Part shown: in pieces, positions 5,335-61,911 of the stretch
How the letters are laid out: each line of letters starts with the position of its first letter
Numbering within the stretch: position 1 is the stretch's first letter
Origin: a virus
Length of the DNA stretch: 64,000 nucleotides
Direction: 5' to 3' (one strand)
IMG/VR virus record: IMGVR_UViG_3300045020_000106
Coordinates: 6,287 to 70,286 of that record
Made by a program: the position numbers and the translations under genes
Notes under the pieces: model-generated
Told to the model about the DNA's origin: nothing
The model's input: only the letters and a program-made list of their open reading frames with translations
Database searches by the model: none

Positions 5335-5337
5335 TGA
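5095..5337 (+). CDS. Hypothetical protein
   Basis: RBS within the repeat. Confidence 0.6.
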   Translation: MTADELLIEADDEVFETIQWLRRYVDNYLVHVPVSDGQRVINGFAAVQIPDWSVKQRIDALEAYRLKIHRFRGELTERGH

Positions 5338-5341
5338 CCCA

Positions 5342-5512: not shown

Positions 5513-5546
5513 CGGGGCAGGCTTAATCCAGCACGGGAGAGAAGTC

Positions 5547-5804: not shown

Positions 5805-5979
5805 AAGGAAATAAGCCATGGTGTTAGTCGCTTTCATCGGGGTTGAGGTAGCGGCACTGTTTTGCTTCTTCGAACTTGTGGTGCATGGGCATTATTTTGC
5901 CGCGATCATCCCGGCATTGTTGATGCTCAGCCTGAAAGCCAGTTACAAAAAGTAGATTTTTGTGAAAGGAAATAAGCCA
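5801..5979 (+). repeat. 18-bp direct repeat GTGAAAGGAAATAAGCCA bracketing a small gene
   Basis: Copies at 5801-5818 and 5962-5979. Confidence 0.85.
5818..5955 (+). CDS. Small membrane protein (45 aa, not in ORF track)
   Basis: MVLVAFIGVEVAALFCFFELVVHGHYFAAIIPALLMLSLKASYKK. Confidence 0.55.
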   Translation: MVLVAFIGVEVAALFCFFELVVHGHYFAAIIPALLMLSLKASYKK

Positions 5980-6210
5980 ATGACGACAGCACCAGCCAAG
6001 AAGGGTTGTCAGCATGAAGTTCCCGAATCCCGCTCGGGCGCATGCGATGGGCAATTGTGCGGGAATTCCGACTCGGCCAGGGCATGTTTTGATTGTGGGA
6101 AGATGCTCTGCCGGCGTCACAGCTTTCTCTGCTGTGATAACTACTACTGCGATTTCTGCTTGGAAACTCATGAGCTAGAATCGCATCCTGTTGTTGAATT
6201 GATCGCGTAA
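5980..6210 (+). CDS. Cys-rich Zn-finger protein
   Basis: CFDCGKMLCRRH...CC...CDFC..H. Confidence 0.6.
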   Translation: MTTAPAKKGCQHEVPESRSGACDGQLCGNSDSARACFDCGKMLCRRHSFLCCDNYYCDFCLETHELESHPVVELIA

Positions 6211-18728: not shown

Positions 18729-18976
18729 ACCAACAAGCCGTAGCTTACCCTCCTATCGCTCAGTCGTCCCGTACGCGTGAGTCTTACCGCATCGCCAGGC
18801 GCGTTGTGTTTGACGTAAAAGGGCACAGCATGGATGGAACATGTGAACGCGACCGATGGGTTGAATTGATCGCTAAAGCGATACGCGACGGATGGGATGG
18901 TGTCTGTCCGTACCCATCGCCCAACTTGAAGCTACGCCCGTGGACACCAGCCGAGCTGGCAGATAACGCCGCATGA
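18725..18976 (+). CDS. Hypothetical protein
   Basis: ATGA overlaps on both sides. Confidence 0.5.
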   Translation: MNQQAVAYPPIAQSSRTRESYRIARRVVFDVKGHSMDGTCERDRWVELIAKAIRDGWDGVCPYPSPNLKLRPWTPAELADNAA

Positions 18977-21900
18977 AACTATTCGCTAAGTCTTTTGCTC
19001 TTATTCTCCTGCTTGTAGGTCTATCCTTCGGGCAAACGCCCAACCCCTACGTCAACCTGACAGGAACGCTCCAAGGGCCGAACGGCCAGCCGATTGTGAA
19101 CGGCATCATCAACATGACGCCGACCCAGCAGTTCTTTGTTGGGGGATTAGGATCTTCCACCTGCTCGGGCTACATCTTTCAAGTCACAGGGTTTCCTTTC
19201 AACTGCGGTGATATTGTTGACTTCAACAACGTCACGCCAGGTCCGCCGGCCAATGGGCTGAATATCGCATGGCAGTCTCAAACGATCAATGGCGTTGATC
19301 TGGTGAGCGCGGCGCTGGTAGGGAATGGGAACGCCGCTACCTGTCTCAGTGGAATTGGCACATGGGTCTCCTGCGGTGGTGGCGGCGGCGGCGGAACAGT
19401 CACGCAGATCAATGCAGGAAATGGTCTCACCGGTGGCCCGATCACCGGCGTTGGAACATTAAGTTTATTTCAGTGTCCTACGGCTCAGATTCTTCTGAGC
19501 ACAGGCACGGGATACGTTTGCGCTGCGGCGGGCACGGGCAATGTCAACACGGCGCCAGCGGCCGCCCAACCGATCGTGCAACCGCTCGGCACGGCATTCA
19601 CGGCGAACATCGACAACAACATTCGCTATGTGACATCGAGCTTCAATTGGTCCTACGTCGATTCCGGCGGAAGTTTAGGGAATGCGACCGTCCCCGGAGC
19701 AATTACTTTCACGTTGCCCTGCACGACGAGCAAGCCTTGCCCTCTCGGCATAGATACTGCATCGGCTTCGCATAACTACGTTTACGCGCTGTATATCTCA
19801 GGAACTGGCACCGCCGAGGCTGCGACAGTCACGGGCGGAACCTGCACGCCTGGCGCAACCGCATCGTGTACGCTTCTCGTCACCACTCTGAATGCTCATC
19901 CCAATGGATACACAATTGGCTCAGCCTCGCAGGGTATTCAAGAAGCCTTCAATGATCCGTGGATTTCCGATACTAGCGCCGCCGGGCAGAGCCAGCCTCC
20001 AACCATCAAGCTCTTAGCCAATACCCAATATTTTGTGCGCGCCACCGTCTACACGCGTGGTCGGAATAACACTCTCGACGGATCAGGATCATCCATGATC
20101 TGCTCGACGCGCTCGAAGTGCATCAAGATCGGCTCTTCCACGGCGCAAAATGGCGGCCACATCTTCAACCTGCAAGGGTTGACGACGCTGGCGAATGCCG
20201 GGGTACAGGCGTCAAGTCTGAGCGCCACTTCCGGGACATACACGATTACCACGGTCCAGAATCATTCGTTCGTGGCAGGGGATTTTGTCGATTGCGAGAA
20301 TCACTACACCACCACGGAGTCTCATTGGGTGGCACAGGTGATTTCAACAGGCCTGACAGCGACGCAGTTCGAAGTAACGTTTGGCTCTTCCACGATTGCC
20401 GCGGGCACAGGTTGGGGCTGGTGCAACCTGGAGAATGCCTTCATTGAAGATGGCTCATCGAACGCAGTGGTCGAAGATGTCATCATCGACCAGCTTGGCG
20501 GCCTTGCTACAGGGACGTTCACCTATCCAATTGTGGACGACAACGACCAGACGTTTAACATCAACCGTGTGCGCAGCGGCGGGTCCGGGATTGTAAGTAG
20601 TAGCGCCAACTGGCCGATTGGGGCGATGTTCTACTCCCGCACCGATCAGGGAAATTCCGGCATCATGTTCATCAGCCACTCCGATGCCACAAATAACAAC
20701 TTCTTCACCGGAGCCTCTAACGGAGTCATCATCAAGGATTCCGTCTGCCAGGGAGAGCCTGTCTTTTGCGTGCGTTACTTCGGAGCGCTTCAACCCGCCG
20801 TCATCGACTCGATGTATCAGGACTCAGGCGGGACGAACCCACTTTATAACCAAGTCGTGCAAATGGGATTGCTGACTTCCGGTTCGCGGGGCACGACCAT
20901 TCATGGAAACCTTCCTCTGACTGCCGCGGCTCCTGTCTTTGTTTCTGGCGGATCGACCACGAATCAGCGCAATTACTTCGTGGCACCTCGAAGTTCGGTG
21001 TTTGGCTACTTCATGCCGCTGTTCATCGGCACCGCCCTACCAACTTCCGGCTCAGTCAGTATCCCTCTGACGTGGCCTTCGATTGAGATGCAGGATGGAT
21101 TTAGCCATGACTCCATCGGGACTCTAACGTGGGACATTCTTGTCACCATCGGGCAGGCGTCATTTGGAACGCCGAGCGCACCCTATGGGACTGGAACTTA
21201 CGCCATTGCCACGAATCAAGGCAGTCTGTGCTCGCAGGGCATGTGTACGTTCACCGATACACAGCCTTCCCTGTCGTCTTATACGGTTGGATCATCGGCG
21301 TGGTATCCGCAGTTCTGGTTCTGGCCCGCTGTCGTAGTGAATAACAACACTGAGAACCTTGGCCCGACTTTCATGGATGCGGCCAATCAGGGCGGCGCTT
21401 ACATCTCCGCTTCAGGAACGGCTTCTGGTGGCGGTGGGCCGGCAGTCGTGGCGCAGCAATGCTTTAATACAGGCAGTCCCTCGGCCTACACGAATGCTTT
21501 TGTCTGGTGTCCGACGGGCACGGGATCGAACTCAGCTCTGAATTTCTTTCAGGTAGCCACACAGACGGCGAACTCGAAGGGCTTGGAGAACTACGGAGTC
21601 GCCATCACGGCCCCGAACGATCTACTTACGTTAGAAGACTCGAACCCGGCAAAAACCAAAGCTACGGCTGGCGGGCGGCCTCTCGCTGATGCGAATGACA
21701 TGGCGATTGGCAAAGATCAGTCGGGTGGGATGAGCGAGAGAGCAGCCACTTCGATCAGCGATTACATCGGAACACTGAACAACGGTACCTCGTGGCAGCG
21801 TCGTCTGACGGCCACGGCGGAAAACTATGCAACCAACGTCGCCATCGCCGGACCCCGCCCGTGGATTGACGTTACCGGGCCTGGATACGCAGCGGACCCG

Positions 21901-23733
21901 ACAGGTGCAGCGGATTCTACTACAGCTCTAAATGCCGCGTTCGCAGCCTGCAACGGCGGTACGGTTTTCCTTCCTCCAAACACCGGAAGCGGATTCTACA
22001 AGCACACTGGCCAACTGACGATCAGCAGCGCCGGATGCACCGTTAAATCTTTTCAGCAGGGCGCGATCATCAAGAAAGGCTACAACTCAACCAATGGCGT
22101 ACCCTCCGGATCCGCTGGCAGTGTGCTCATTACCGCCAGCAATGTCACCATCGACGGCATCACTTATGACGGCAACAACGGGAGCTTCACGGGCGGCTGC
22201 TTCTCGTTCGCGGGGAATATCTCGCAGGTAATATTCCAGAACAATTACGTTCACAACTGCGATGGAAACTCTCTTGTCTTCACCGGAACGAGCACGGGTG
22301 CACAAGGGCCGACGAACTTCAAGGTACTGAATAACTACATCGTGGAAGGCGAAAATGGATTTGGTTTAACGTTCTCGCAAAATATCAGCGGCTTCGATGT
22401 GGAAGGAAACCGTTTCGATTGCTCTCCCAGCACAGCGAATCCCAACCCCGGATCGGCCTGCCTGCAACTGGAATCCCAAGGTCTGACAACCTCCATCTCG
22501 CACGGCAAGATCGTCAACAATACGATCATCACCCCGTCGTGCAGCGGGGGAGAATGCTGGGGCACGCAGTTAGGCCAGTTCAATGCCTACGCTTCGACCG
22601 ACATCGTGTTTGGACAAAATCACACCATCATCTCCGGCCCGTCCGCGAATTGCGGATCGTTTCAGGGGCTGGCCAACTCCCGGCTAGACCTTGGCGTGTG
22701 CGAAGAAGCGGGTAACACGGCCAACTATGCCGCGTGGGAGTTCATCATGAACAACGGGATCAACGTCACAGGCGGGGAGCTTGACGATGAGGGACCGGGC
22801 AATGCCATTGGCATTATCATTGAGAGCACGTCGAACAGCAACTTTAGCGGTTTAACGGTCGTTGGTTTCGGGGAAAGCCCGACCGGAGGCGTGACGGCCG
22901 GATTGGAAATTACCTCTGCCGCTTCGGGAGGTTCGCAGGCTATCGCGTCCTGTACGGAGACGGGAAATATCGCCACGTACACGGTTTCATCCCCGCCATT
23001 GAATGCCAATTTCCAGCCGCCCGCAGCGGTGTTTTTGGGTGGATCGTACACACCCGCAGGATTCGGCGGCGGCCCTTACACGATCACCAATACTAATTAC
23101 AACCGCATCTCAGGCACGTTCTCGGTGATTCTGCCTGTAACCGGATTGGGTACGTCTTGTTCGGGAACCTCGCTCATTGTCCAGGCGGTCACCAGCAATA
23201 ATAACTTCTCCAACATCGTGCTCAACTTCCCCACAGGGCAGTATGGGGCGCTGGGGTCGGTTCTGTATGGTATCCAGATTCGTTCGAACGTAACCCAGGC
23301 CATCGTCTCCAATAATCACTTCAGCGACATCAACATCAACGGCACACCGGGAGCCTCGATCAACGAAGATGCCATCAGCATCCAGTCCCCCGGCACGAAT
23401 GTGACGACAGACTCGAACACCTTCGACGGCATCAAGATTAACAATGTCAACATAGGACTCAATCTTGTCGCTGGGACAACCAGTTACTTTCGCAACATCG
23501 AATTCAACGGAGGAGTAACGACGCCTGTTAGCCTGAGCGCTCCAACATTCGCCGAGACGGATTTCCCTGTTCCATTTGCCGATCTCGTAGCTTGCAGCTC
23601 GTCTCTTCAGGACAAGCGAGCGGTTGTGAATAATAGCTCGGTATCGACTTTTGGGGGGACAGCGAACGGCAGCGGATCGACGCAGGTAGCGGTAAGATGC
23701 AACGGCACGAATTGGACGGTAGTGGGAAACTAA
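18973..23733 (+). CDS. Tail spike/fibre-like protein with beta-helix (pectate-lyase-like) domains and an N-terminal Sec signal peptide
   Basis: MKLFAKSFALILLLVGLSFG|Q; VNLTGTLQGPNGQPIVNG resembles the Stf-type fibre N-domain; GTVTQINAGNGLTGG; ADPTGAADSTTALNAAF...GTVFLPP; C-terminal VRCNGTNW. Confidence 0.8.
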   Translation: MKLFAKSFALILLLVGLSFGQTPNPYVNLTGTLQGPNGQPIVNGIINMTPTQQFFVGGLGSSTCSGYIFQVTGFPFNCGDIVDFNNVTPGPPANGLNIAWQSQTINGVDLVSAALVGNGNAATCLSGIGTWVSCGGGGGGGTVTQINAGNGLTGGPITGVGTLSLFQCPTAQILLSTGTGYVCAAAGTGNVNTAPAAAQPIVQPLGTAFTANIDNNIRYVTSSFNWSYVDSGGSLGNATVPGAITFTLPCTTSKPCPLGIDTASASHNYVYALYISGTGTAEAATVTGGTCTPGATASCTLLVTTLNAHPNGYTIGSASQGIQEAFNDPWISDTSAAGQSQPPTIKLLANTQYFVRATVYTRGRNNTLDGSGSSMICSTRSKCIKIGSSTAQNGGHIFNLQGLTTLANAGVQASSLSATSGTYTITTVQNHSFVAGDFVDCENHYTTTESHWVAQVISTGLTATQFEVTFGSSTIAAGTGWGWCNLENAFIEDGSSNAVVEDVIIDQLGGLATGTFTYPIVDDNDQTFNINRVRSGGSGIVSSSANWPIGAMFYSRTDQGNSGIMFISHSDATNNNFFTGASNGVIIKDSVCQGEPVFCVRYFGALQPAVIDSMYQDSGGTNPLYNQVVQMGLLTSGSRGTTIHGNLPLTAAAPVFVSGGSTTNQRNYFVAPRSSVFGYFMPLFIGTALPTSGSVSIPLTWPSIEMQDGFSHDSIGTLTWDILVTIGQASFGTPSAPYGTGTYAIATNQGSLCSQGMCTFTDTQPSLSSYTVGSSAWYPQFWFWPAVVVNNNTENLGPTFMDAANQGGAYISASGTASGGGGPAVVAQQCFNTGSPSAYTNAFVWCPTGTGSNSALNFFQVATQTANSKGLENYGVAITAPNDLLTLEDSNPAKTKATAGGRPLADANDMAIGKDQSGGMSERAATSISDYIGTLNNGTSWQRRLTATAENYATNVAIAGPRPWIDVTGPGYAADPTGAADSTTALNAAFAACNGGTVFLPPNTGSGFYKHTGQLTISSAGCTVKSFQQGAIIKKGYNSTNGVPSGSAGSVLITASNVTIDGITYDGNNGSFTGGCFSFAGNISQVIFQNNYVHNCDGNSLVFTGTSTGAQGPTNFKVLNNYIVEGENGFGLTFSQNISGFDVEGNRFDCSPSTANPNPGSACLQLESQGLTTSISHGKIVNNTIITPSCSGGECWGTQLGQFNAYASTDIVFGQNHTIISGPSANCGSFQGLANSRLDLGVCEEAGNTANYAAWEFIMNNGINVTGGELDDEGPGNAIGIIIESTSNSNFSGLTVVGFGESPTGGVTAGLEITSAASGGSQAIASCTETGNIATYTVSSPPLNANFQPPAAVFLGGSYTPAGFGGGPYTITNTNYNRISGTFSVILPVTGLGTSCSGTSLIVQAVTSNNNFSNIVLNFPTGQYGALGSVLYGIQIRSNVTQAIVSNNHFSDININGTPGASINEDAISIQSPGTNVTTDSNTFDGIKINNVNIGLNLVAGTTSYFRNIEFNGGVTTPVSLSAPTFAETDFPVPFADLVACSSSLQDKRAVVNNSSVSTFGGTANGSGSTQVAVRCNGTNWTVVGN

Positions 23734-45284: not shown

Positions 45285-48200
45285 GTGCTCTGGTTTGGAA
45301 GGCCAGTCCCACAGAACAGGATGCTCGGGGAAGTGTGTCAAGACGACCCCACCAATCTTCCTGTTGGGCTGGCGGCTCTATGTCAAGAGATCGAATTCAC
45401 CCGTGACTCAGGCGGGCCGACGTGTGCCACGACACGCGCCGGAGTCAATCTCGCCATGCAGGGCACCGACCCCGGTGCGGCCGTCACAGGCTTGGACGGC
45501 TTTCTATACTCCCCGATAAACGCCACAGATCCCTTCTTTCAAATGCCACTGATTTATCAGCCGACCGTAGGCTCGGAATATGAATCTCCGGTCGGCACCG
45601 GCAGAATGGTGAACTTCCCACAAACCAACTTCTCGGAGATGACCAGCGCAGAGTTGGAAGGCACTCTTGTTCATGCGATTCGTGCGGTAGCAGGGAACCA
45701 GGTATTCACCGCTTACAGCGACTTAAATGTTCCAGTAAGTGGGCTGTCTACTATGGACCCCAAGGCGAAGACGTTGAACCCATTCGGCATTAAACCTTTC
45801 GGGTTTTATTGGCAGGCGAACCTACCCGTCCTGCAAGGAGAAATCTGCTGTCCTCCCACTCCTGCCAGTGGGAATGGTCATACTTATCAGGCGCAAAACT
45901 CAGGAACCACCGGAGCTACTGCTCCCGCCTTCCCGACCGGCGACGGCGCGACGGTCGACGACAATGGGATCATCTGGCAAGAACAGACGATAGTCATTGC
46001 CAATCGCCTACCTCCTCCCGCTTCGCCAGTCATAGCGGCGGAAGGCGCGGGCAGCGGACTTCCTGCCAATAAAGACGTTTACGTCGTCATCACGTTGGTA
46101 AATGCGCAGGGCGAATCTCTGGCTTCTGTTCCTGTATTCGCGACGACAGTCCTCAATCCATCTATAGTTGCAGTCCTGATTCCGTCGTTAGCCTCCATGA
46201 TGCGATGGATTCAAAATCTTCCCTCGCAGTATGTTCCTACCACAGCGAATGTGTATGCGGCGATTGTGGCGCATGGCAGCGCCGCACCTCCGCTCTCCTC
46301 GTACTTATTCATCAATTCGGCTGCGCTTGGCGGCGGAGTCAATATTGCCGCAGCGGGATCTGGGAATGCTCCGCCAACCTTCAACAGCGCCCGTGTAACT
46401 CCTGGACAGTTGCCCACTCCGACCACGTCCCCGGACATTCAACGGGTTCCTGCCGGAAGTCTTGTGCCGCCTCCGGGAGCGCCAAGTCTCACCGAAGTGC
46501 CGGGTGCAGGATCGACTCTGGCCGGTGGGTATTACGTTACCTTGACTTTGGTGAATGCAGCCGGTCAAACCAGCATCGGTGGAATAAGTTACATCGTCAT
46601 CGCCTCTGGGAGCGCGATTCAAGTGAATCTCGCCAGCTCCTACGGACCTTCGGTAACAGGAGTGAATGTGTGGTTTGTTGGGGCGGGCGGCGGGCCGACG
46701 ACCTATCTAGCGAATGCTTCCCCGGAAGCGCTCGGATCAAGCCCGCAATTTATTGCTCTGGGAATTGCGACTGCACTTCCACCGAATACAGCCGCGCTTC
46801 CCTCTGGAGGATTTACAGCCGGCCGCGATGTCTACGTAGCACAGACCTTCAAGAATGCCAACGGCGAAACACCGCTTGGACCCACGGCGAATGCGATCAT
46901 CAACACCAACGCCAACGATGCCGTATTCGTGCAGGTGCAAACCCCCACGGGACCGGACAACGAGCAACTCTACAGCATCACGCAGGTAGGCATTTACGAA
47001 GCGGACGTGCCCACAGGCTCACCGGCACCGCCCCCATCTGCCTTTGCGCTTGTTGGATATTTCAACAACCTGGCAACACCGTTTATTTTGGATAGCGCCA
47101 GCGGTCCCAATCCTCCGATCACCAACGGGACAGGTCCGGGCGGAGCCATTGCCGCGGATACGACGACAGGTGGACCGAATGGAACGCAAGGCATGCGTTA
47201 CGCCGCCTGCATGTGGATGAACCAGATTGAGACAGTCTCAGGGTTCACCTTGGCGAGCGTCGTCTCAACCATCATCGATGAAGGTGGATGGGAGATTGGA
47301 GTCTTCAATCTTCCCATAGGGATGCCGAACGTTATTGCGCGCATTGTCGCGTTAACCGTTGCTGACGGTGTGCAGGCAGGTCCATTCAACTGGATTGGAT
47401 TGGTCGACATCGATGTTCCCGCCCAAAATATCGTCTACCCACAGCAAACCCTTGTGGATCAGGTTGAGCAAAGCGCCACAGTATTTCTGGATAACACAAC
47501 CACGCAAGGCACATTCAACTTTACCGACACTTTCCTGCTCTCGGCGAATAACGTCGATGACCGACTGAGAATCACAATTCCACCGCAGGGCGTGCGCGTC
47601 GATTACCTCGAAGGCCTGGGTAGACTGGCGATCTCAGGCGTCCCCGGATTAAACAGCGGAGTTTATATCAGCTTAGGTGGGGAGGACTTCGAGAGCTTCT
47701 ATGGGGATACAAGTCCAGTCCCAATTTCCAGTGCGGGCGATCGGTGTTTTGGAATCACCGACCGATATAAAGGAATTCCCTTTGTTCTGATGGCCTCGGG
47801 AGGATTTACGCTCAGTCCCAATACCGGAGATCCTTCGAGTTGGTCCCCACTTCGCCGTTGGGGAGGAATCGATCAGGCGCAGCAGTTAGGGCCATGCGGT
47901 TTTCGGGCATGGTCGGCGTGCGGCAAATTCATCATCTTCGCCCATCGTACTGGCCTTTATAAGTACGACATGGCCGACCCTGACATGATGTCGAAAGAAG
48001 TTCCCAAGCGGTGGGCGCAAATCAACTGGGCGGCCGCGGAAACCATTTGCGTCACGATTGATGAAGATACCCACACCGTGCGCGTTTTGGTTCCGACAGG
48101 AGAGAGTACAGTCCCGAACGCGGAATACGTTCTCAGTTACATTGAAGGCTGGAATAATCCGATCCACTTTTCCACCTTCTCAGGCAAAGAAATCTCGATG

Positions 48201-48791
48201 GATGCCGCGCGGCGGTGGTCCTTCAACATGAGCGTTTCCGCATTTGTATGCGCCCGCCTGGCGAGAACTCTTCCACCCGGTGGGCAAGCGTTTCTGGATG
48301 GGCCGACATTTGAAACGCTTCCTGATTCCAGTTTCGGTATCTCACAACTGCTCTATGCCGACTCCGCACCAGACGGGGGAGTGCAGGCGCGAACGCCGGG
48401 AGTATTTTCGGACAATGGCGGATATATTGATTATCAGTACGAGACCATGAGCACGGGCATGATGCAGGCCGTGTGTAAGCCGGAAGGATTCAATCTGAAT
48501 GCAGCGGGAGGAGGGACTTGCATTGCATCGTTTATCGCCAGCCGGGCGCAAACCACGGATACCGGCGGTGACCCGGAGTTGGTTGACGAGTTAGAGGAGT
48601 TATTCTGCGATCCCATTCCACTTACCGCGCGACAAATCTCAGGTATTACCCGGAAGGTTCCACCGAGCATCAATGAATTCTGGCGGTTAAGATTTGTTAG
48701 CAACGCGCAACCGGGAGACTGGGTAAGCCTGAAAGCGGTGACGGTTTATGTGATTCCGTTCACGTCCGGGAGAGACCCAGGAGACCGATGA
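45285..48791 (+). CDS. Tail nozzle/stabilization protein (P22 gp10/T7 gp12-like) with FN3-like inserts
   Basis: 1168 aa after the adaptor; beta-propeller-like GPCGFRAW..FIIFAHRTGLY; three G..L.AG.YV..T.VNA.GE modules. Confidence 0.7.
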   Translation: MLWFGRPVPQNRMLGEVCQDDPTNLPVGLAALCQEIEFTRDSGGPTCATTRAGVNLAMQGTDPGAAVTGLDGFLYSPINATDPFFQMPLIYQPTVGSEYESPVGTGRMVNFPQTNFSEMTSAELEGTLVHAIRAVAGNQVFTAYSDLNVPVSGLSTMDPKAKTLNPFGIKPFGFYWQANLPVLQGEICCPPTPASGNGHTYQAQNSGTTGATAPAFPTGDGATVDDNGIIWQEQTIVIANRLPPPASPVIAAEGAGSGLPANKDVYVVITLVNAQGESLASVPVFATTVLNPSIVAVLIPSLASMMRWIQNLPSQYVPTTANVYAAIVAHGSAAPPLSSYLFINSAALGGGVNIAAAGSGNAPPTFNSARVTPGQLPTPTTSPDIQRVPAGSLVPPPGAPSLTEVPGAGSTLAGGYYVTLTLVNAAGQTSIGGISYIVIASGSAIQVNLASSYGPSVTGVNVWFVGAGGGPTTYLANASPEALGSSPQFIALGIATALPPNTAALPSGGFTAGRDVYVAQTFKNANGETPLGPTANAIINTNANDAVFVQVQTPTGPDNEQLYSITQVGIYEADVPTGSPAPPPSAFALVGYFNNLATPFILDSASGPNPPITNGTGPGGAIAADTTTGGPNGTQGMRYAACMWMNQIETVSGFTLASVVSTIIDEGGWEIGVFNLPIGMPNVIARIVALTVADGVQAGPFNWIGLVDIDVPAQNIVYPQQTLVDQVEQSATVFLDNTTTQGTFNFTDTFLLSANNVDDRLRITIPPQGVRVDYLEGLGRLAISGVPGLNSGVYISLGGEDFESFYGDTSPVPISSAGDRCFGITDRYKGIPFVLMASGGFTLSPNTGDPSSWSPLRRWGGIDQAQQLGPCGFRAWSACGKFIIFAHRTGLYKYDMADPDMMSKEVPKRWAQINWAAAETICVTIDEDTHTVRVLVPTGESTVPNAEYVLSYIEGWNNPIHFSTFSGKEISMDAARRWSFNMSVSAFVCARLARTLPPGGQAFLDGPTFETLPDSSFGISQLLYADSAPDGGVQARTPGVFSDNGGYIDYQYETMSTGMMQAVCKPEGFNLNAAGGGTCIASFIASRAQTTDTGGDPELVDELEELFCDPIPLTARQISGITRKVPPSINEFWRLRFVSNAQPGDWVSLKAVTVYVIPFTSGRDPGDR

Positions 48792-53099: not shown

Positions 53100-56000
53100 A
53101 TGCCCACCGTTGCCGAGCCGGACACTACCGATGAATCCGTCAGCGTCCGGAGTGCGCCTCCGTCTGGATTTACGGAGTCCCTATCAGCATCTGAGACCGG
53201 CGACCGCAGCAAACCTCCCACTGGCTTCAGTGAAGTCCACGATGCCTCCGCTCCGCCTCCAGGCTTTACCGAAGATGTAGGGGCGCAACAGAACGTCGAT
53301 CAGGCGCTCGCAGGCGCACCCAAGCCACAGGTAAACATGCAACCCGTGGCTGTGACATCGGGCCGTCCCGTGGGTAGTCCCGCAGCTGTGGCACCCGCTC
53401 CCGGAACGGAACTGGAGCATTTTGGTGCGCTCGTGCCGCAAGCCGCTGTCCCGGCCCTGCAGTCCATTCAGACACATGTCAATGAGCCTCTGAATAAAGC
53501 CGCGCAGGCTGGCGCGGAATTTGGCAAAGAGGTTGGTCAAGAAGCCGTCACCGGAGCGACGATTCTTTCGCACCCCGCAGAATCGCTCAGCGCGGCCCTG
53601 TCATCGCCTTACGGACCAAAGCCAGCCACAGAAACGCCAGAGCAGACCGCCCAGCGCGAGCACCCGGTAGCAATGGTAATTGCGAGTGGCGTGGGTGAAG
53701 CAGCTGGCGGCGCTGCGGCCGATCCGCGCAACTGGCCCTTCTTTGCTTCTGGCGGAGCCCGCCCGGTCCTGCAGAAAATCATCAGCTTAGGGTTCAGCGG
53801 CATGATGGCCAAAGATGCCACGGACGCCGCTGTCGACCTGCACGCCAATTGGGATAAATACACACCACAGCAACGTGCGGAGATTGCGGCGAAGGGCGGC
53901 ATTTCCGGCGTGATGGCGGCGATGGGTGCCTATCACGCGGCCACATCCAAGCTTCCGCCTCCAGCCCCACTCCGCCCCGAGCCGGAAAGCCTTACGGCGC
54001 TTCATAACGAAGCGCGAGACATCGTCAACTCGGCTGGACTGGAATATCCCTACAACCCGACGCCGGAAGATCTGAAAACAAGCTATCGCCAATTCCAGGC
54101 GCGTGCCGCGAACGCCGCGGAAGCCGATCAGCCAGCGATGAAGGAAAAGGCCAATCGACTCCAGGAAATCTATGACAAGTTGAGCAAGGGAGCGCCAACC
54201 GAGAAGCCAGTTCATCACACATCGAACGACGTTAAGGCTCTGCGAGAAAGCGCCGAAGCACAATCCGGCAAGATTGGCGATGCCGTCGCGAAAGCCGCGG
54301 AACCCGTAGAGGGCGCAAAAGTCGAAGCCGTCCGCGATGCGAAAGACTCCGACCGGATCGAAGATAAAGCCAAACGGCAGAACGTGCAACCCTCACAGAT
54401 CGGGGATATTGCCGGCGCCAAGGTCTCGGTCCCAGATCAGGAAGCGGCGAATGAAGTCCTGAAAAATCTGCACCAAGAAATGCCGGTGGAATCGGCAAAT
54501 GGGACGGTTACGGGTGAGCCGCAGAATAACGCCGTGCGGCAGACGCAGGCCATTGTCGACACCGAGGCACCACCAGAGGAGCCGATAAAGCATGCTGAGA
54601 TCATGTTGCAGACCCCAGAGATGCACGCCGCAACCGATCGCACCCACGACCAATATCGCGAGGCGCAAGAACTTCGTGCTCAGGGTAAAGAAGCCGAAGC
54701 CCAGGCCATCGAGTCTGAAATTGCAAAGACACACGAAGCGGCAGAGCAAGCCGCTAGATCACGCCAAGGAGAATCCGATGCCCTTTCGCAGCGAGGCCCA
54801 GCAACGGTTCATGGAGGCGCACAAAAAGAAAATGGCGCGTCAGGGCGTGAACCTGAAAGAGTGGGAGCAGGCAACGGACTTCAAGAAACTCCCACCCCGA
54901 GCGCCCAAGCCGCCGAAAAAGAAAAGCTCCCCGACCACCTAGGAGATAAACGCGTTCAGGTGAAAGACGCGAAAACCGGGGAATGGAAAGATGGAACGGT
55001 AATCGCCGATGTCATGCGCTCCGGGCCGACGACGCGCGGCGAAGCAACCCTACGAAAACTTCGCGGGCAATTTGATGATGGTGGAAGATTCGATGTAGGC
55101 CCAGAGAGTATCCGCCTTCCCCAAAGTAAGCGGGTAGGCGTCGACTTCGATGGAACGCTGGTCAAAGAAAATGCCGACGGTTCAATAGGCGAACCAATCC
55201 CAGAGCGTATTGCCAGTCTGAAGCAAAGAATTGCGGCAGGGGATGATGTCATCATCGAAAGCCACAGAGCAAAAGACCCGCAGCAAATCGCGAATATTCA
55301 AGAGGTACTGATCTCCCAAGGCCTTCCAAGGCTCCCCGTCACTGCAAAGAAAACAGCCGCCGGAGAATTGATTGACGACAAGCAGGGGAAGACACCGGGA
55401 GTCGATGTCGACCGTGTAGCCACAAATGCGAATGCTCCACTCCCAGATAAACCCTTTGCCCTCTCAGAGCATGAAAAAGAACTCTCCAAACCCTATGGTC
55501 CTCCCAAAGCAGATTTTGGAGGAAGAGTCCCGGATGAATCGTTAGGACTCAATCCGAATCCGGCAGAAGATTTCGGCAACAAAGCCCGCGCCGAAGTGGA
55601 GCGGAGAATGGGCGGAGCCTTACCACGAGGAGCCACAGAGCGGCGCGTAGAACCCCAGACCGACGATGAGAAACTAAAAGCCGCTTTCGCCGGATCACGT
55701 AGTGTAGGGAACAAAGAAGGGGGCTTATTCACTCAAGCAAAGTCTGAGTTATTCCCTGGTAAGCGGGAGTTATCCAATGACGAAATTGCGAAAGTTGAGA
55801 CGCGCGCGCGCGAACTCAGCTCACAAAAGACAGCAACGTCTGAAAAGACGAGTCAACCTGTGGGAGGTTCTGATGCTGGAAAAGAGCGTGGGAGTCCAGC
55901 CAAGGAAACGCGCAAAGAAGTAGCTCCCGGCAAAGTCGGAGAGATGAAAGTATCCGACCTTCGAGTCGCACCGAATAAGTTCCAGTATAAGTTAGGCACG

Positions 56001-59000
56001 GATGCCGCTGGCACTTCCACTCTTCTCAAGGAAGCCAGGGCGTTTAATCCCGATCTCGCAGGGACAATATCGGTATGGAAAGACCCATCCGACGGCAAGA
56101 CCTATGTCGTGAACGGCCACCATCGCTATGAGCTGGCAGTTCGTAAAGGACAAGATGAAATCGCCGTAAGGCATGTCGTTGCCGATGACGCGGAAACTGC
56201 GCGAGCGATTGGAGCGATGCAGAATATCGCCGAAGGCCGCGGCACTGCGGTGGATGCTGCAAAGTTCTTACGCGATTCCGGCATGACACTCGCAGACTTT
56301 CAGGCAAAGGGTATTTCATTGGGCGAGGCCACGGCGGCGAAAGGCCTGGCGCTCGCCAATCTTGACGATTCGCTTTTCAATAAAGTAGTACAGGGCGATC
56401 TGCGCGAAGGCCGCGCGGTCGCCATCGGTGAAGCGACGAAAGACCCGGCAGAGCAGAAAGCTATTCTCTCGCTGGTGGAAAAGAAAGAATCGCGAGGCAC
56501 AAGAGTCAGCGACGACACGCTCTCGGAACTCATTCGCTTGGTCAAGGGAAGCGAACAGACTACCGAGACCACGCAAAACCTATTCGGAACGCAGGAGATT
56601 AGTCGCTCGCTGGCACTGGAGAAAGCAGAAATATCCGCGCACATCAAGCAGCAATTGGCAAAGGATAAGAAACTGTTCGGCTTTGTCGCCAAGGCGGATC
56701 GCGCAACCGAGTTGGAACGCGGCGGCAACAAGATTGATGTAGGCAAATCGAAGGAAATTTCTACTGGCGCGGCTCAGGCCGAAGAGGTTTATAATAAGCT
56801 TAGTGAGCGCGGAGGTCCGATTGCATCCATCCTCGACGAAAGCGCCAGAAAACTCGCAGAGGGTGACAGCCCCGCGACCGTTAAATCGGAAGCCTACACC
56901 CGCGTCCGCTCCGAAATATCCAAAACTCTCGGGCCACCAGAAGGAACAAGTGCTGGACGATCTGAAGAAGCACGCGAAGAAAACCTAGAACCTACCCTCC
57001 CCGGCATGGAGCACGTTCCCACCGAACGCGCCGAAGCCAACGCGGAGCATCAAGGCAAAGAACTCACCGAAAAACTCACTGAGCCGCCCAAGTCCATCGA
57101 AGCCAAAGCGGGCGAGATTGAGCAAAAATCCCCGCTATTCCGCGACACGGAAGCCAACCCACAGAAAGGCTTATTCGGCTCCGATCTTCTCTCCGGGGAA
57201 TCTGGCAGCTTTGAACCAGGCAAGGTAGGCGAAGCGGCAAAGGCAGTCGGCGATTATATCGGTGGCGTCCGTCACAGCACAGAGATCGCTCGTGATCTTC
57301 AGCGCAGCCTTGAAACCTTAGATACACAAAAACAGGCGGACATCCTCGAAGGCATCAACGTGATGAAGGTAATGAAGTCGGCAGGATTAAAGCATGCCGA
57401 CGATGAAGCCATCTACCATCACCTCGAAGATCCGAATGCCAAGCTTTCAGACGATCAGCAGAAGTGGCTCGACGATATCGTTACGCCGCTCCAGAAAATG
57501 AACACGGAGTTTTATGAGGAATTAAAAAAGGGCGGGGTGCCCATCGAGAACTATGTACATCGAGTCGTGCAGGGGAAGGGCGGGGTTCTCGACCGCATTG
57601 CGCAAGGGGCGAAGGCAATGGGCTCACGCGCAACCCTCTCGAAATCCGCGCCGCAAACCAAGCAGCGTACCTATATGGCGCTGGATAATGACAAAGGTGA
57701 ACGCCAGGTAGTCTCCATCAAGAATGGTCAGGTGACGGCATGGAAAGATGGAACCCCGGAAAATCTCGGTGGCCTTAGCGCTTCGGAAGAGGGCAAGCAG
57801 TTTGAGGATAAAGACGGCCAGACGTGGAAACTTAAACAGGCCACCACGAAAGAAATAGAAGCGAATACAGATACGAAGTACTACCACTCAGCCATCGCCA
57901 GCACGGTTGTTTCGAATATCCAACTAGGCTCCGCTGTGCGCGCGCTGCGATTCCTTGAGGAATACAAAAAGAGTCCTGAGTTCAAAGAATCGGCGGTCCC
58001 GCAAAGTTCCGGCAATCCCCCGAAAGGCTGGAGGACCACCAACCTCCCACAATTCACGGGATACTATTTCGAGCCCCGTACCGCTGAAGTGTTGGATCAG
58101 TACTACGACCGGATGCGGCAAGGGAACATTGGAGCACTGGATAAAGTAGGTGCGCTGATGCGAGCCACCATGCTCCTGAATCCGATCATGCACCCGATGA
58201 ACGTCGCCGCCTCATGGGCGATGGAAAAAGGCGCTACCGGCTTATTTATGACGCCATTCAACCGGGCCACGTGGCGGGCGGGGAACAAGGCAGTCAAGGC
58301 AGTGTTAAGCAAGAACGATGACTTCCTCGCAGCGCTGGACGCGGGCGCGGCCGTACAATCCCACCGGGCGATCATTCAAGATATTACGCGGTTGTTCTTT
58401 AATCAGCTCTCGGAAGCGCTGGACAAGAAAGAAACATGGGCCACGAAGATCGCGGATGCAACTGGGCTCCGTGGAACCAATGTCATCACGGCTTATCCTC
58501 GACTGGTGCATCAGATCGCATTCTCTGCCGGCGACATTTTCTATCTCCAGTCGGCCTATCAGTATCAGATGGAACACCCCGGCGTCTCGCTGGAAGATGC
58601 ATTGAAAGAGTCCGGGCGAATCAACCCTGAGTACCGGATACCCACTCGCATTGCCGATGTTCCACAACTTTCGAAGTTGATGACGAACCGATGGGCAACG
58701 ATTTTCGGACCCTATCACTACTCACTATTAAAATCCTTCGGCGAAGTCGCCAAGTCCGCGCTGGGTGCGCAGGAGCCCGCGCCAGGAAGGACGAAGGCGC
58801 AAGAGGTCTCCAAGGGGTGGGACAGATTGGCGGCCCTCGGTATTATCACCATGATGCTCTACCCGGCGCTGGATGAACTGGCGAAACACTTCACCGGAGA
58901 CAAGCACGCAAAAGTCAGACGCGCAGGACCATTCGGATTGATCGACTCCGCACTGCAGGTAGCTAGTAAGCAGCAATCGGTCAGTACAGCCGCACAGAGG

Positions 59001-59585
59001 GTCGTGACTCCAGCGCCACAAACCAAAGCGGCGGCAGAGTTGGCATTCAATCGGGACTTCTATTCCGGGCACCAAATCTACGATCCACATGCCGACTGGA
59101 AAACGGAAGGCCATCAGATCGGGAGATACTTGCTGGATGAAACTCTCGGCCAGCCCGGACAATTTGCCAAGGCGGAAACCTCGGAGCAAAAGCATCGCTT
59201 CGCCCTGCAGCAAATTGGGATCACAATGGCGAAGACGCCGGCGGAAAAAGTTGCTGCGGATATTGCCATGTCAAAAGTTGGAACAGAAGCCGAAGACCCA
59301 GAGGATCACGAGAATCGCGTGGAGCGCCGAGAAATCCTCAATCAGCTACGCAAAGGGAACCGGCAACCCTTACAGGATGCAATCGACAAGCACGAGATCA
59401 CCGGCAAGCAGGCGCACGCTCTGGAGCGGCGATCAAGACTCACCCCGCTTCAGGATACTGTGCATGGCTTCAGCTATAAAGAAGCGAAGAAGGTGTACGA
59501 CGTGGCCGATGCGGATGAGAAAAAAGAATTAGAGACGATTCTCGCTCAAAAAGAACGACGCGCTCACATGAATTACTGGCAGTAA
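53100..59585 (+). CDS. Giant polyvalent ejection protein: J-like, RelA/SpoT-like, SH3-like, HAD phosphatase, ParB-like and C-terminal helical domains
   Basis: PPxGFxE x3; PEDLKTSYR; KDSDRIEDK..DIAGAK..AEIMLQT..HDQY; VDFDGTL..IDDK; YVVNGHHRY. Confidence 0.8.
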   Translation: MPTVAEPDTTDESVSVRSAPPSGFTESLSASETGDRSKPPTGFSEVHDASAPPPGFTEDVGAQQNVDQALAGAPKPQVNMQPVAVTSGRPVGSPAAVAPAPGTELEHFGALVPQAAVPALQSIQTHVNEPLNKAAQAGAEFGKEVGQEAVTGATILSHPAESLSAALSSPYGPKPATETPEQTAQREHPVAMVIASGVGEAAGGAAADPRNWPFFASGGARPVLQKIISLGFSGMMAKDATDAAVDLHANWDKYTPQQRAEIAAKGGISGVMAAMGAYHAATSKLPPPAPLRPEPESLTALHNEARDIVNSAGLEYPYNPTPEDLKTSYRQFQARAANAAEADQPAMKEKANRLQEIYDKLSKGAPTEKPVHHTSNDVKALRESAEAQSGKIGDAVAKAAEPVEGAKVEAVRDAKDSDRIEDKAKRQNVQPSQIGDIAGAKVSVPDQEAANEVLKNLHQEMPVESANGTVTGEPQNNAVRQTQAIVDTEAPPEEPIKHAEIMLQTPEMHAATDRTHDQYREAQELRAQGKEAEAQAIESEIAKTHEAAEQAARSRQGESDALSQRGPATVHGGAQKENGASGREPERVGAGNGLQETPTPSAQAAEKEKLPDHLGDKRVQVKDAKTGEWKDGTVIADVMRSGPTTRGEATLRKLRGQFDDGGRFDVGPESIRLPQSKRVGVDFDGTLVKENADGSIGEPIPERIASLKQRIAAGDDVIIESHRAKDPQQIANIQEVLISQGLPRLPVTAKKTAAGELIDDKQGKTPGVDVDRVATNANAPLPDKPFALSEHEKELSKPYGPPKADFGGRVPDESLGLNPNPAEDFGNKARAEVERRMGGALPRGATERRVEPQTDDEKLKAAFAGSRSVGNKEGGLFTQAKSELFPGKRELSNDEIAKVETRARELSSQKTATSEKTSQPVGGSDAGKERGSPAKETRKEVAPGKVGEMKVSDLRVAPNKFQYKLGTDAAGTSTLLKEARAFNPDLAGTISVWKDPSDGKTYVVNGHHRYELAVRKGQDEIAVRHVVADDAETARAIGAMQNIAEGRGTAVDAAKFLRDSGMTLADFQAKGISLGEATAAKGLALANLDDSLFNKVVQGDLREGRAVAIGEATKDPAEQKAILSLVEKKESRGTRVSDDTLSELIRLVKGSEQTTETTQNLFGTQEISRSLALEKAEISAHIKQQLAKDKKLFGFVAKADRATELERGGNKIDVGKSKEISTGAAQAEEVYNKLSERGGPIASILDESARKLAEGDSPATVKSEAYTRVRSEISKTLGPPEGTSAGRSEEAREENLEPTLPGMEHVPTERAEANAEHQGKELTEKLTEPPKSIEAKAGEIEQKSPLFRDTEANPQKGLFGSDLLSGESGSFEPGKVGEAAKAVGDYIGGVRHSTEIARDLQRSLETLDTQKQADILEGINVMKVMKSAGLKHADDEAIYHHLEDPNAKLSDDQQKWLDDIVTPLQKMNTEFYEELKKGGVPIENYVHRVVQGKGGVLDRIAQGAKAMGSRATLSKSAPQTKQRTYMALDNDKGERQVVSIKNGQVTAWKDGTPENLGGLSASEEGKQFEDKDGQTWKLKQATTKEIEANTDTKYYHSAIASTVVSNIQLGSAVRALRFLEEYKKSPEFKESAVPQSSGNPPKGWRTTNLPQFTGYYFEPRTAEVLDQYYDRMRQGNIGALDKVGALMRATMLLNPIMHPMNVAASWAMEKGATGLFMTPFNRATWRAGNKAVKAVLSKNDDFLAALDAGAAVQSHRAIIQDITRLFFNQLSEALDKKETWATKIADATGLRGTNVITAYPRLVHQIAFSAGDIFYLQSAYQYQMEHPGVSLEDALKESGRINPEYRIPTRIADVPQLSKLMTNRWATIFGPYHYSLLKSFGEVAKSALGAQEPAPGRTKAQEVSKGWDRLAALGIITMMLYPALDELAKHFTGDKHAKVRRAGPFGLIDSALQVASKQQSVSTAAQRVVTPAPQTKAAAELAFNRDFYSGHQIYDPHADWKTEGHQIGRYLLDETLGQPGQFAKAETSEQKHRFALQQIGITMAKTPAEKVAADIAMSKVGTEAEDPEDHENRVERREILNQLRKGNRQPLQDAIDKHEITGKQAHALERRSRLTPLQDTVHGFSYKEAKKVYDVADADEKKELETILAQKERRAHMNYWQ
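54778..54942 (+). CDS. Nested +1-frame small basic protein (54 aa)
   Basis: AAGGAG RBS 6 nt before ATG; MPFRSEAQQRFMEAH...EWEQAT.FKKLP. Confidence 0.65.
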   Translation: MPFRSEAQQRFMEAHKKKMARQGVNLKEWEQATDFKKLPPRAPKPPKKKSSPTT

Positions 59586-59611: not shown

Positions 59612-60313
59612 GTGCCCAGAAAGCGAAAAGATAAATTCCTCGCGCCCAAAGAGCGGGAACAATGCTTCATTCAGGCACACATCAAGACCGGGGCCGACCC
59701 AGCAAAAATCGCCGCATGCGAGAAGCGGGCAGGCATGGTACCGGGCGACGGCCTGGAACTTCTCAAACGGCGTTCGGTTCAAAAACAAATCGATCAGGCA
59801 TTAGCCGGGATTCGTGCCGAGCAAATGCGTCAGGCGGTGGTATCCGAAGCAGCCCAGGAAGCCAAAATTCAATTCAAGCAGGAAGTTGTTGCCACTGTAG
59901 AAAAAGCCAAGCTCATGGGATTAAACCGGGAACTCCTGATCGACCAGTTGATGCAGTGTGCGATCGGGATCAACATGCACCTGTTCCCAAAAGAGAAACT
60001 GGACTACATCAAAGCCGGGTTGGTTCTCGAGGGAATCATAGAAAGCGGGCAGACGAAACGCGTAGCTCCGTTAGAAAGCGGACTCAAAGAGTCGTCGGGG
60101 GGCATTTACACGAACCACTTCGACCGCCTCGCCCAAGGGTCAACCGGTGTCGAATCGTCGCCAGAATCAAGCGCTAGCCCACCGCAAGATGATGCTTACG
60201 AGCTAATCCCGCCAGAGCAAAAAGTAAAACTCCCTCCTCCCGGCGAACCTATTCATGAAAACCGACCCACAGAACCCTCCCGCGGCCGGGTCATCACGGT
60301 TGAGGTTGGATGA
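59612..60313 (+). CDS. Terminase small subunit (putative)
   Basis: N-terminal KEREQCFIQAHI...AG...GLELLKR HTH-like pattern; coupled to terL. Confidence 0.7.
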   Translation: MPRKRKDKFLAPKEREQCFIQAHIKTGADPAKIAACEKRAGMVPGDGLELLKRRSVQKQIDQALAGIRAEQMRQAVVSEAAQEAKIQFKQEVVATVEKAKLMGLNRELLIDQLMQCAIGINMHLFPKEKLDYIKAGLVLEGIIESGQTKRVAPLESGLKESSGGIYTNHFDRLAQGSTGVESSPESSASPPQDDAYELIPPEQKVKLPPPGEPIHENRPTEPSRGRVITVEVG

Positions 60314-61911
60314 GCCTCAGCCCGTACCCTCCCCTGGAACCACCCCCACGCGGTTTTGAGCCTGTATGGTGGCCGATCAACGCCGCGCAGCAGGCTTATC
60401 TCAACTCCAAGGCCGAACTGTTGTTAGGAGGTGGGGCCTCAGGTGGTGGCAAAACGCAGGTTCTCGCAGCCGACGCCGTTCAGGAATACAGAAACCCTGC
60501 CTTGCGCGCACTCTTACTCCGCACGACGCTCGAGGAGATGTCGGAGTTGGAAGATATTCAGCAGAAAATGTATGAACCGTTGGGTGCACGATGGACGCGG
60601 AAACGCTCTATCGCCGCCTGGAGGTTCCCTTCGGGGGCGACGATCCGGCCCGGTTACCTTGCCCACGACAAACATTTGAAGCGCTATCAGGGAAATCCGT
60701 ACACCTGGCTCGGCATTGATGAGAGCGGGCAACACCCTGAAAATCGCATCCGGTTCATGCTCGGCTGGTTAGTGGCGCCCAAAGGATCTGGCCTGCGGGC
60801 CCGCGCAAGATTCACCAGTAATCCGGGCGGGGACGGGCATGGCTGGCAGATGCGGGTATTCCTGCGCAACCGTTGCCCGGTGCATTGCGCCGCCGACTTC
60901 GCGGACGATCGGCCATTTGAAACCAGCGTTTACCCTGGGAGAGTGTACCGAGGAGCCTGTTGGACGGACGACTCTCCGGTGCATATGACCACGGCATTCA
61001 TCCCGGCCAAACTGATTGATAACCCATTTTACGGAGAAGATAAGCGAAAGCGACTTCTGACGCAAACGAAGGCGCTGCAGCAGCAGCTTCTTCATGGCTG
61101 CTGGTGTATGGCAGAAGGACTCTATTTCGATTGTCTTCGTCCCGAGATGGTCGTCCCCTATGCCACGATTGGAGACTCCTGGTGGTGGCAGCATTTCATC
61201 GCGATCGATTACGGCTTTGGGAACTCATCTGCGGCCGCCGGCATGTACGCAATCAATCCCAGCGGGACGGTGTTTAAGACGAGGGAGCGAGTGGAAGCAA
61301 AGATGTACGCCAACAAATTTGCGCTGGCGATCTGCAAGAAAGGCTTTGCCGCGACCGACAACCCTCGTCAGGGGCCGCAGGAGAACTGGCTCAAGAAGCT
61401 CAAGGCACGAGATCCTGAAAGCCCACGCATGGCGTTTTGCGTGATGGATGAAGCGATGGATCAGCATCGGGGAACCGGGGAAAGTGTGTACGATGTAATC
61501 GCGAAAATTATGGGAGACCACGGCATCGGCTCAATCAAAGCGGCACATGATCCGATGGGCAACGCGCAAGTTCTCTACAACGGCCTGGCAAATAACCTCC
61601 TCGTGCTGACGCGGGACTCCGCAGATCTGCCGCTCACCTATCGCTCTCTGAGTAGCCGAGTCATCGACAAACGAAAAGCCATCAAAAAAATCCACGGCGC
61701 ATGGGAGGATGACTGTCATGACGAAACGTCCTACGGGTTTAACACCTGGCGGGAAAACTCCCAGAAACCCGAACGCACAGCCCTGGCGGAAGAAATAGCA
61801 GAACTAAGAAAGCAGGGCATGGATGAAACCAGCATCGCTAGAATTGCATGGAAGAAGGAGCAGGAAATTCAACAGAAAGAACACAAGCAGGCCAAGGGAG
61901 TGAGACTTTAG
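60310..61911 (+). CDS. terL: Terminase large subunit
   Basis: NAAQQAY, Walker A GGASGGGKT, Walker B LGIDES, TSNPGG, DNP, nuclease IDYG and DDCHD. Confidence 0.95.
   Translation: MSLSPYPPLEPPPRGFEPVWWPINAAQQAYLNSKAELLLGGGASGGGKTQVLAADAVQEYRNPALRALLLRTTLEEMSELEDIQQKMYEPLGARWTRKRSIAAWRFPSGATIRPGYLAHDKHLKRYQGNPYTWLGIDESGQHPENRIRFMLGWLVAPKGSGLRARARFTSNPGGDGHGWQMRVFLRNRCPVHCAADFADDRPFETSVYPGRVYRGACWTDDSPVHMTTAFIPAKLIDNPFYGEDKRKRLLTQTKALQQQLLHGCWCMAEGLYFDCLRPEMVVPYATIGDSWWWQHFIAIDYGFGNSSAAAGMYAINPSGTVFKTRERVEAKMYANKFALAICKKGFAATDNPRQGPQENWLKKLKARDPESPRMAFCVMDEAMDQHRGTGESVYDVIAKIMGDHGIGSIKAAHDPMGNAQVLYNGLANNLLVLTRDSADLPLTYRSLSSRVIDKRKAIKKIHGAWEDDCHDETSYGFNTWRENSQKPERTALAEEIAELRKQGMDETSIARIAWKKEQEIQQKEHKQAKGVRL

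Follow-up and report, generated by a model that had tools for sequence, protein, structure and literature searches.

A probable small-protein gene nested out of frame in an interdomain linker of giant polyvalent-type phage proteins

The out-of-frame nesting of one gene within another is a known kind of arrangement. In phage lambda, the embedded spanin genes Rz and Rz1 encode two subunits of one complex, and phiX174 contains internal overlaps in which E lies within D and B within A. According to parts of PMC8227390, an internal overlap typically uses +1, and it is usually this frame that arose de novo. Phages and conjugative elements also encode giant polyvalent proteins (Iyer et al. 2017, PMC5512222). 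Here, a 54-codon open reading frame (ORF) nested in the +1 frame of a giant polyvalent-type gene is analysed in a 64,000-nucleotide stretch of viral DNA (hereafter the window), which covers positions 6,287 to 70,286 of the 70,286-bp IMG/VR record IMGVR_UViG_3300045020_000106 (completeness estimate 97%). Homology and conservation make it highly probable that this ORF is a real protein-coding gene, translated by internal initiation within the giant gene, and that the shared segment is a dual-coding cassette.

As in Rz/Rz1, the small gene has a start of its own and is fully enclosed, in the +1 frame, by a larger gene, formation of both products from the shared DNA being predicted here; in keeping with an embedded pair, out-of-frame enclosure, separate initiation signals and selection on both frames are all found. 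Unlike Rz/Rz1, with which it shares no sequence similarity, the locus has no known functional link between its two products, its embedded gene comes from a family that also occurs free-standing and is the more constrained reading, and its enclosing reading is a predicted disordered linker. The internal +1 overlap and the asymmetric constraint between frames are shared with phiX174 and with viral overprinting. In classical overprinting, so far as parts of PMC8227390 describe it, the nested +1 frame is young and taxonomically restricted, whereas here the nested frame is widespread and more constrained and the long-gene reading would be the new one. The giant host may resemble the polyvalent proteins of PMC5512222: it would be a multi-domain protein, domain order is fluid among its relatives, and some of its homologues carry precomputed matches to PF18760 (ART-PolyVal), PF18763 (ddrB-ParB), PF04607 (RelA/SpoT), PF13563 (2'-5' RNA ligase-like) and PF13871/PF13872. 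The window protein itself (P0002) compares with that class through a RelA_SpoT match below the cut-off (23.9 vs 27 bits), an HAD-like domain, a ParB-like PHROG match (phrog_723) and a phrog_21 segment at residues 930-1252. The terms 'frameshift', 'overlap', 'alternative frame' and 'linker' are all absent from the main text of PMC5512222, where no gene hidden in a linker is described, and a literature search returned no description of a gene nested in polyvalent proteins, which is not proof that none exists.

The initial annotation had described a complete small gene with its own ribosome-binding site and start in the +1 frame of the giant gene, and its coordinates and 54-aa peptide (P0001, the translation of 54778-54942) were reproduced exactly. 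Read directly from the window sequence, AAGGAG at 54766-54771 is followed by a 6-nt spacer, ATG at 54778 and, in frame, TAG at 54940-54942. Position 53100 is 0 and position 54778 is 1 modulo 3, which places the small ORF in the +1 frame of the giant ORF; it lies wholly within the latter, over host residues 560-615 (Table 1), and frame 0 is stop-free throughout 53100-59585. The Shine-Dalgarno (SD) site, read in the host frame, corresponds to a conserved 'RQ[GE]E' of the giant homologues. Ten kilobases of window DNA, with 55% GC, contain 94 ORFs that reach 40 aa or more, with the +1 frame already open at 54589; a 55-codon open alternative frame is here no more than expected by chance. Openness alone is therefore no evidence for a gene, which has to be argued from homology and conservation. 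A longer form (P0003) starting at ATG 54592 is not supported: M1 of the 54-aa form is where the family alignments start, and the number of open codons ahead of the start ranges from 4 to 88 among relatives.

Table 1 Features of the nested locus and its surroundings in the window
Feature	Coordinates	Strand	Remarks
Giant host ORF P0002, 2161 aa, polyvalent-type multi-domain	53100..59585	+	Two genes upstream of terminase large subunit
RelA/SpoT-like upstream host domain	54342..54662	+	PF04607, E 5.3e-05, residues 415-521; weak: 23.9 bits, below cut-off 27
Shine-Dalgarno-like AAGGAG	54766..54771	+	6 nt 5' of nested start codon
Host-frame linker over nested gene, P0002 residues 560-615	54777..54944	+	Predicted disordered
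Nested small gene P0001, 54 aa	54778..54942	+	+1 frame; MP[FY]xSxxQ...EW...LP family, basic tail
Small beta-rich host domain	54951..55097	+	Strands at P0002 618-666 (model 219-267), pLDDT ~75-79
HAD-like host domain, DFDGT motif	55107..55412	+	phrog_1238, E 1.8e-11, residues 670-771
Terminase large subunit	60310..61911		phrog_979, E 1.5e-30; two genes downstream of giant gene

When P0001 was searched with phmmer against 1.84 billion cluster representatives (threshold E ≤ 1e-3), 173 matches, each a cluster at 50% identity, were obtained, the best with an E-value of 5.4e-13 and 67% identity over residues 1-48. Most are proteins of 44-120 aa with a shared MP[FY]xSxxQ start; among the 150 matches listed, 117 are at most 120 aa long, 106 align from residue 1-3, and 79 satisfy both. 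The search for free-standing homologues that had been proposed for the peptide thus returned many. The stand-alone phage family that the initial annotation had proposed is accordingly real, but it is not restricted to phages, free copies being also found in chromosomes of Acidobacteriaceae metagenome-assembled genomes (MAGs). An alignment of 53 short members gave the consensus MPYKSxAQxxYFxANxxKLExQGVxVxEWxxASxGKKLP followed by a basic tail, in which P2, S5 and Q8 are invariant and M1, E28, W29, L38 and P39 nearly so. P0001, which is 31-60% identical to the 52 members aligned with it, retains M1, P2, S5, Q8, E28-W29 and L38-P39, and its Lys/Arg/Pro-rich tail ends in PPRAPKPPKKKSSPTT. By sequence similarity, the small protein is a member of a widespread, uncurated family of about 45-60 aa. 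Its AlphaFold2 model, made with the family alignment, has a mean pLDDT of 85 and three short helices, and family members are predicted to share this fold, with a Lys/Arg/Pro-rich tail after the helices.

The family has so far escaped the reference collections. P0001 had no match in Pfam, PHROGs or NCBIfam and no candidate in a word-index search; the 53 members had no meaningful match in Pfam, and stray single matches among them were limited to phrog_1375 (4e-6) and phrog_5320, one member each, and TIGR04111 (0.0037). A sequence profile search of the family against the PDB found nothing, and Foldseek with the P0001 model found no PDB match and, in BFVD, at best unnamed small phage proteins (E 0.14). 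Among cultured phages, tblastn with P0001, P0047, P0055 and the module of locus L098 gave nothing or a non-significant match in OBP (E 4), and blastn with the giant gene gave nothing. DUF3008 comprises small phage and bacterial proteins with an MPxKSxxQ start and an '...LPEK'-like end. It is the nearest labelled ESM Atlas cluster (PF11450, score 0.88), which was rated a lead only. Membership was rejected, as the Pfam model (cut-off 24 bits) matches none of the 53 members at E ≤ 0.1 nor P0001 at E ≤ 1, and finds nothing at the module loci of five MAG genomes carrying them.

The module also occurs in frame within longer proteins. Among the matches listed, it is N-terminal in 18 proteins of 200-628 aa and internal or C-terminal in two, P0051 (at residue 329) and P0148 (at residue 539); in P0051 the initiator Met is replaced by Ala. 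Partners following an N-terminal module include a ferritin-like domain with DUF6321 in P0158, DUF5872 in P0171 and a weak glycine-zipper match in P0142, and a Pfam search of ten long family members with such fusion partners gave no coherent functional hint.

The host protein is itself conserved around the gene. Besides the query, 22 giant homologues (1571-3677 aa) share this region, and 12 of them have 52-63% identity across at least 95% of residues 380-800. The RelA/SpoT-like domain is strongly conserved among them, host codon position 3 being the most variable there; downstream, the beta domain keeps the motif '...G.WK.GTVLAD...RRLRG.F.DG..F' and the HAD-like domain keeps GVDFDGTL. When host residues 400-799 were modelled with AlphaFold2 (7-sequence alignment, mean pLDDT 62), residues 563-608 of P0002 (model residues 164-209) came out as coil with a pLDDT of 30-33, flanked by a long helix closing the upstream domain and, on the other side, by the small beta domain and then the HAD-like domain. 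The earlier description of this stretch as a linker between two domains is therefore borne out, the upstream domain being the weakly matched RelA/SpoT-like one.

DNA was recovered for six distinct relatives (L002-L007; host identity 42-56%), and all of them have an intact module in the +1 frame, enclosed by host ORFs that stay open over 2084-3675 aa; the interrupting stops that would have spoken against the gene were looked for in this frame and are absent from all six. The nested start is ATG in five and GTG in one, the nested stop follows after 49-69 codons, and an AGGAGG precedes the start by 6-7 nt in all but L004, where the site is weak. Its homology (173 matches) and its conservation in six of six relatives are what lift the ORF above chance. 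The homologues' host-frame linker is conserved as '[ND]A[IV]QKPS...RV', which is MPFKS... read one base earlier. Over the same 147 bases, mean pairwise amino acid identity is 65% in the nested frame and 39% in the host frame, and nested-frame codon position 3 is the most variable (0.441 vs 0.288 and 0.167). In a codon alignment along the host gene, pairwise differences at host codon positions 1/2/3 are 0.240/0.144/0.601 in the upstream domain, 0.453/0.286/0.141 in the overlap and 0.449/0.402/0.662 downstream, the codon periodicity following the host-frame pattern in the flanks and the nested-frame pattern in the overlap. The two-frame comparison of constraint suggested with the initial annotation gave an excess of synonymous change in the nested frame and a deficit in the host frame: in the GC-rich set, the synonymous share of differences is 0.397 vs 0.190 expected in the nested frame and 0.168 vs 0.279 expected in the host frame.

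The same arrangement is found in many uncultured phages. A first viral scan with a single protein piece returned no relatives; a scan of IMG/VR with 12 close family members (one subfamily) matched 187 contigs, of which 80 loci were fetched. In 32 of the 80, the module is nested in ORFs of 867-3042 aa, the host always occupying the module's -1 frame and the other frame spanning the module for at most 162 aa. All 39 nested loci are in the same phase, and all 39 have ATG or GTG at family position 1. Many of the nesting phages have 32-39% GC and lack an SD sequence, having an A-rich leader. The module lies anywhere from residue 44 to residue 1666 of its host, and when the 39 nested loci are grouped by BLAST, their 250-aa flanks form at least 11 groups on the upstream side and at least 15 on the downstream side. 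No phmmer similarity was detected between the window giant and six AT-rich hosts, and family matches are few or absent in three AT-rich hosts, L077, L085 and L112. Each of the five viral records searched whole contains a single module copy. In four AT-rich loci (L092, L105, L127 and L146; module at 5001), the host ORF begins 44-55 codons before the module with a short conserved N-terminal '...Y.I.G..YTE.ELK.YL..GG.D...', to which the dual-coding linker is directly attached; these hosts are preceded by two genes, one of 164-178 aa and one of 980-1414 aa.

Free-standing copies provide the comparison for the host frame. No long ORF spans the module in 48 of the 80 viral loci; 31 of these were examined, 15 near-duplicates and two with an unclear start being left out, and all 31 have 1-14 stops in the host-like frame, with 1-3 in GC-rich and 4-14 in AT-rich copies. 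TAA (74), TGA (43) and TAG (17) are mixed among these stops, and stop-codon recoding was rejected as an explanation of the free copies. For the nested loci, the small gene was recoded synonymously with the host's own codon usage. In the AT-rich loci, the host frame stays open in 0-0.38% of 5000 recodings (23 of 23 loci; 0 of 5000 in 14), and in nine GC-rich loci in 1.3-21%. These odds in the AT-rich loci and the stops in all 31 free copies examined, together with the constraint on the nested frame, place both frames under selection, the nested one for its amino acid sequence and the host one for openness without conservation of the linker sequence. Among 22 AT-rich copies, the synonymous share of differences is 0.478 vs 0.178 expected in the nested frame and 0.131 vs 0.254 expected in the host frame.

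In prokaryote genomes, the same subfamily was found at 24 loci, almost all in Acidobacteriaceae MAGs and others in Verrucomicrobiae. None of the 24 has a giant host ORF, and GGAGG mostly lies upstream. The MAG loci suggest Acidobacteriaceae as candidate hosts of phages with the cassette. These copies sit among cellular genes such as those for Ku, a sulfatase and a pseudouridine synthase. In three related Acidobacteriaceae loci (L155, L156 and L157), a 274-279-aa ORF lies about 225-250 nt downstream of the free small gene (~5226-6072), and that of L155 encodes a Ku protein (PF02735, E 3e-40). This may hint at a setting of DNA-end or DNA binding, though it comes from these three loci only; Pfam searches of nine MAG neighbours gave no coherent functional hint apart from this Ku. 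In L177 and L178, also from MAGs, two frames each hold part of the module match, suggesting a copy that is frameshifted or decayed.

Among viral free copies, those of seven AT-rich loci (L099, L102, L104, L119, L122, L123 and L129) begin 3-12 nt past the stop of an upstream gene of 940-1650 aa in six loci and of 171 aa in L123. In L102, L119 and L123, this upstream gene shares homology with the post-module part of the nested L077 host (24-26% identity, E 1e-49 to 1e-56), so that the module stands on opposite sides of the same domain in different phages. After the free copies of these seven loci come two or three genes of 171-184 aa and then one of more than 1077 aa. The record holding L099 (G007) is 66 kb long, AT-rich, classed as having inverted terminal repeats and 100% complete.

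These distributions bear on how the two readings came together. The initial annotation had proposed that an existing gene was swallowed by read-through and kept, and that this may be a general way in which polyvalent proteins grow. Under such a scheme, free copies lying between two genes would have been captured again and again as the upstream stop was lost, and the closeness of AT-rich free copies to the stop of a long upstream gene, the host-like phase of that gene in L102, L119 and L122, and the presence of merely 1-3 stops in the relevant frame of GC-rich free copies all fit it. The module tree also offers it some help: in 97 peptides (45 columns), nested and free copies interleave with nine changes, but only three branches are well supported and these starred branches force a single change. 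Repeated capture is nevertheless unlikely. All 39 nested loci share one phase, though the other is usually easier to keep open, and the usual overlapping junctions (ATGA, TAATG) would by frame arithmetic place the upstream gene in the other phase. AT-rich free copies, with their 4-14 host-like-frame stops, could not be joined to a neighbouring gene by the loss of one stop. A pair of flanking genes that is separate in one phage and joined in another was not found: tblastn of ten nested hosts against the 31 free loci gave no locus with homologous flanks on both sides. Furthermore, the post-module region of L077 and of L098 matches genes that lie upstream of the free copy in L102, L119 and L123. 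What survives of the read-through proposal is that the small gene is probably the older partner, being constrained and more widely distributed; as a general growth route it is not favoured, the constant phase pointing to one shuffled dual-coding cassette.

The reverse order of events, in which the small ORF arose de novo inside the giant-gene linker and later escaped to a free-standing life, would agree with most known internal overlaps, where the new frame is +1 relative to the old one as it is here (parts of PMC8227390). It is less credible still, given that constraint falls on the nested frame, the host reading being a poorly conserved predicted coil, that the family is broad (173 clusters at 50% identity), that 24 loci lie among cellular genes in Acidobacteriaceae or Verrucomicrobiae MAG chromosomes, and that a compact fold is confidently predicted for the small protein.

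A third possibility is that a +1 ribosomal frameshift fuses a truncated N-terminal part of the giant protein to the module, with no separate peptide made. The +1 frame of the window is open for 63 codons upstream of the nested ATG, and P0051 and P0148 do carry the module as an in-frame internal or C-terminal domain. This is very improbable, since every one of the 39 nested loci begins the module with ATG or GTG at family position 1 and an SD sequence lies upstream of the nested start in GC-rich loci. Moreover, many loci have a nested-frame stop only 0-10 codons ahead of the ATG (in L079 immediately next to it), so that a frameshift fusion has no space there, and a shared slippery motif is absent from the upstream sequences compared (by eye only). 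That the giant ORF is instead three genes, with frame 0 open across the small one by chance, can practically be dismissed, for all that frame 0 of the window alone stays open in 13.4% of synonymous resamplings: frame 0 contains no stop in 53100-59585, the host frame is open in all six relatives and 32 further loci with a chance of at most 0.4% per AT-rich locus, and no host-frame start is conserved after the nested stop (a restart codon such as the window's GTG 54960 after TAGGAG is not conserved across the 16 loci compared), so that the downstream domains depend on reading through.

The reading of the nested ORF as a gene translated from within the giant gene thus remains the preferred one. 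The same 165 bases would be read twice, as a small protein in the +1 frame and as a disordered interdomain linker in frame 0, and the small protein would be made by internal initiation at its own SD sequence and ATG. Internal initiation is favoured by the start at family position 1 in every nested locus, by the SD sequence where phages use one, by the nearby upstream stop in many loci and by the lack of a shared slippery motif in the by-eye comparison. The dual-coding segment appears to behave as a cassette, found in the same phase between differing flanking domains in GC-rich and AT-rich phages. The small gene is probably the older reading, as judged from its wider distribution, stronger constraint and compact predicted fold, and capture of an older gene is likely. 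Capture would probably have occurred once, most easily in a GC-rich genome, where the host-like frame of free copies has fewer stops (1-3 vs 4-14 in AT-rich copies), and the cassette would then have spread by the domain shuffling typical of polyvalent genes. We infer a single cassette origin from a phase that is constant throughout, even though the alternative one would usually be easier to maintain, and from ordinary overlapping junctions, which would favour the other phase; one cassette inherited and shuffled among giant genes is thereby favoured over repeated captures.

Several points weigh against parts of this account. The single origin is read from the constant phase and not from the tree, in which three branches are well supported. 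The host frame of the window, open in the share of synonymous recodings given above, is not improbable when taken alone. The host-frame peptide is recognisably similar across phages ('[DNY]A[VI]QE[PR]S..VLQ...GGER.RVE'); we attribute this to the nested constraint and to stop avoidance, though a function of its own may contribute. Among 13 homologues available as protein only, the host-frame sequence of P0010 and P0014 suggests a changed start, and P0012 seems to be without the segment. The family hidden Markov model was built from matches to P0001 itself, which makes it circular for the window and not for the relatives. Finally, the functional suggestions below draw on composition, predicted fold and neighbours only.

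Judged by its basic Pro/Lys tail, its small helical fold and its predicted co-expression with the giant polyvalent-type protein, the product might tentatively be a small basic accessory protein, either nucleic-acid-binding or virion-internal, a possibility that we hold at well under even chances. It is rather doubtful that the 150-200-nt cassette, moving between giant phage genes that otherwise show no kinship, combines a flexible joint with a small basic protein that acts on its own giant protein, in folding, processing at the joint or packaging; if it did, nesting would be a device of functional coupling and more than a relic of capture.

The surroundings of the giant gene in the window are sparsely annotated. 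For the putative role of the giant product as an ejection protein, named in the initial annotation, the context observed is its position two genes ahead of the terminase gene. The stretch 59612-60313 lies between the giant and terminase genes, and nine of ten neighbouring large ORFs tested had no PHROG match, the phage being very poorly covered by known families. Further very long ORFs on the same strand are found at 18973-23733 (1586 aa) and 45285-48791 (1168 aa, without a PHROG match).

In summary, a probable nested gene in a known kind of arrangement is described here, which is notable for the breadth and the strength of its dual-coding signal. Gene callers skip a same-strand gene lying wholly inside another, and dozens of uncultured phage lineages are therefore annotated without the small protein, for which Pfam, NCBIfam and the PDB hold no entry; with the family model, viral contigs can be re-annotated and a system for function tests chosen. 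With a host frame kept open in AT-rich phages against odds of less than 1 in 250 per locus, the cassette is a clean case of dual coding and offers material for studying how two frames share one sequence. The usual picture of overprinting appears inverted, in that the nested frame looks old and constrained and the new reading is the linker of the long gene. The linkers of polyvalent proteins can thus hide genes, and the case suggests one way in which such linkers may arise.

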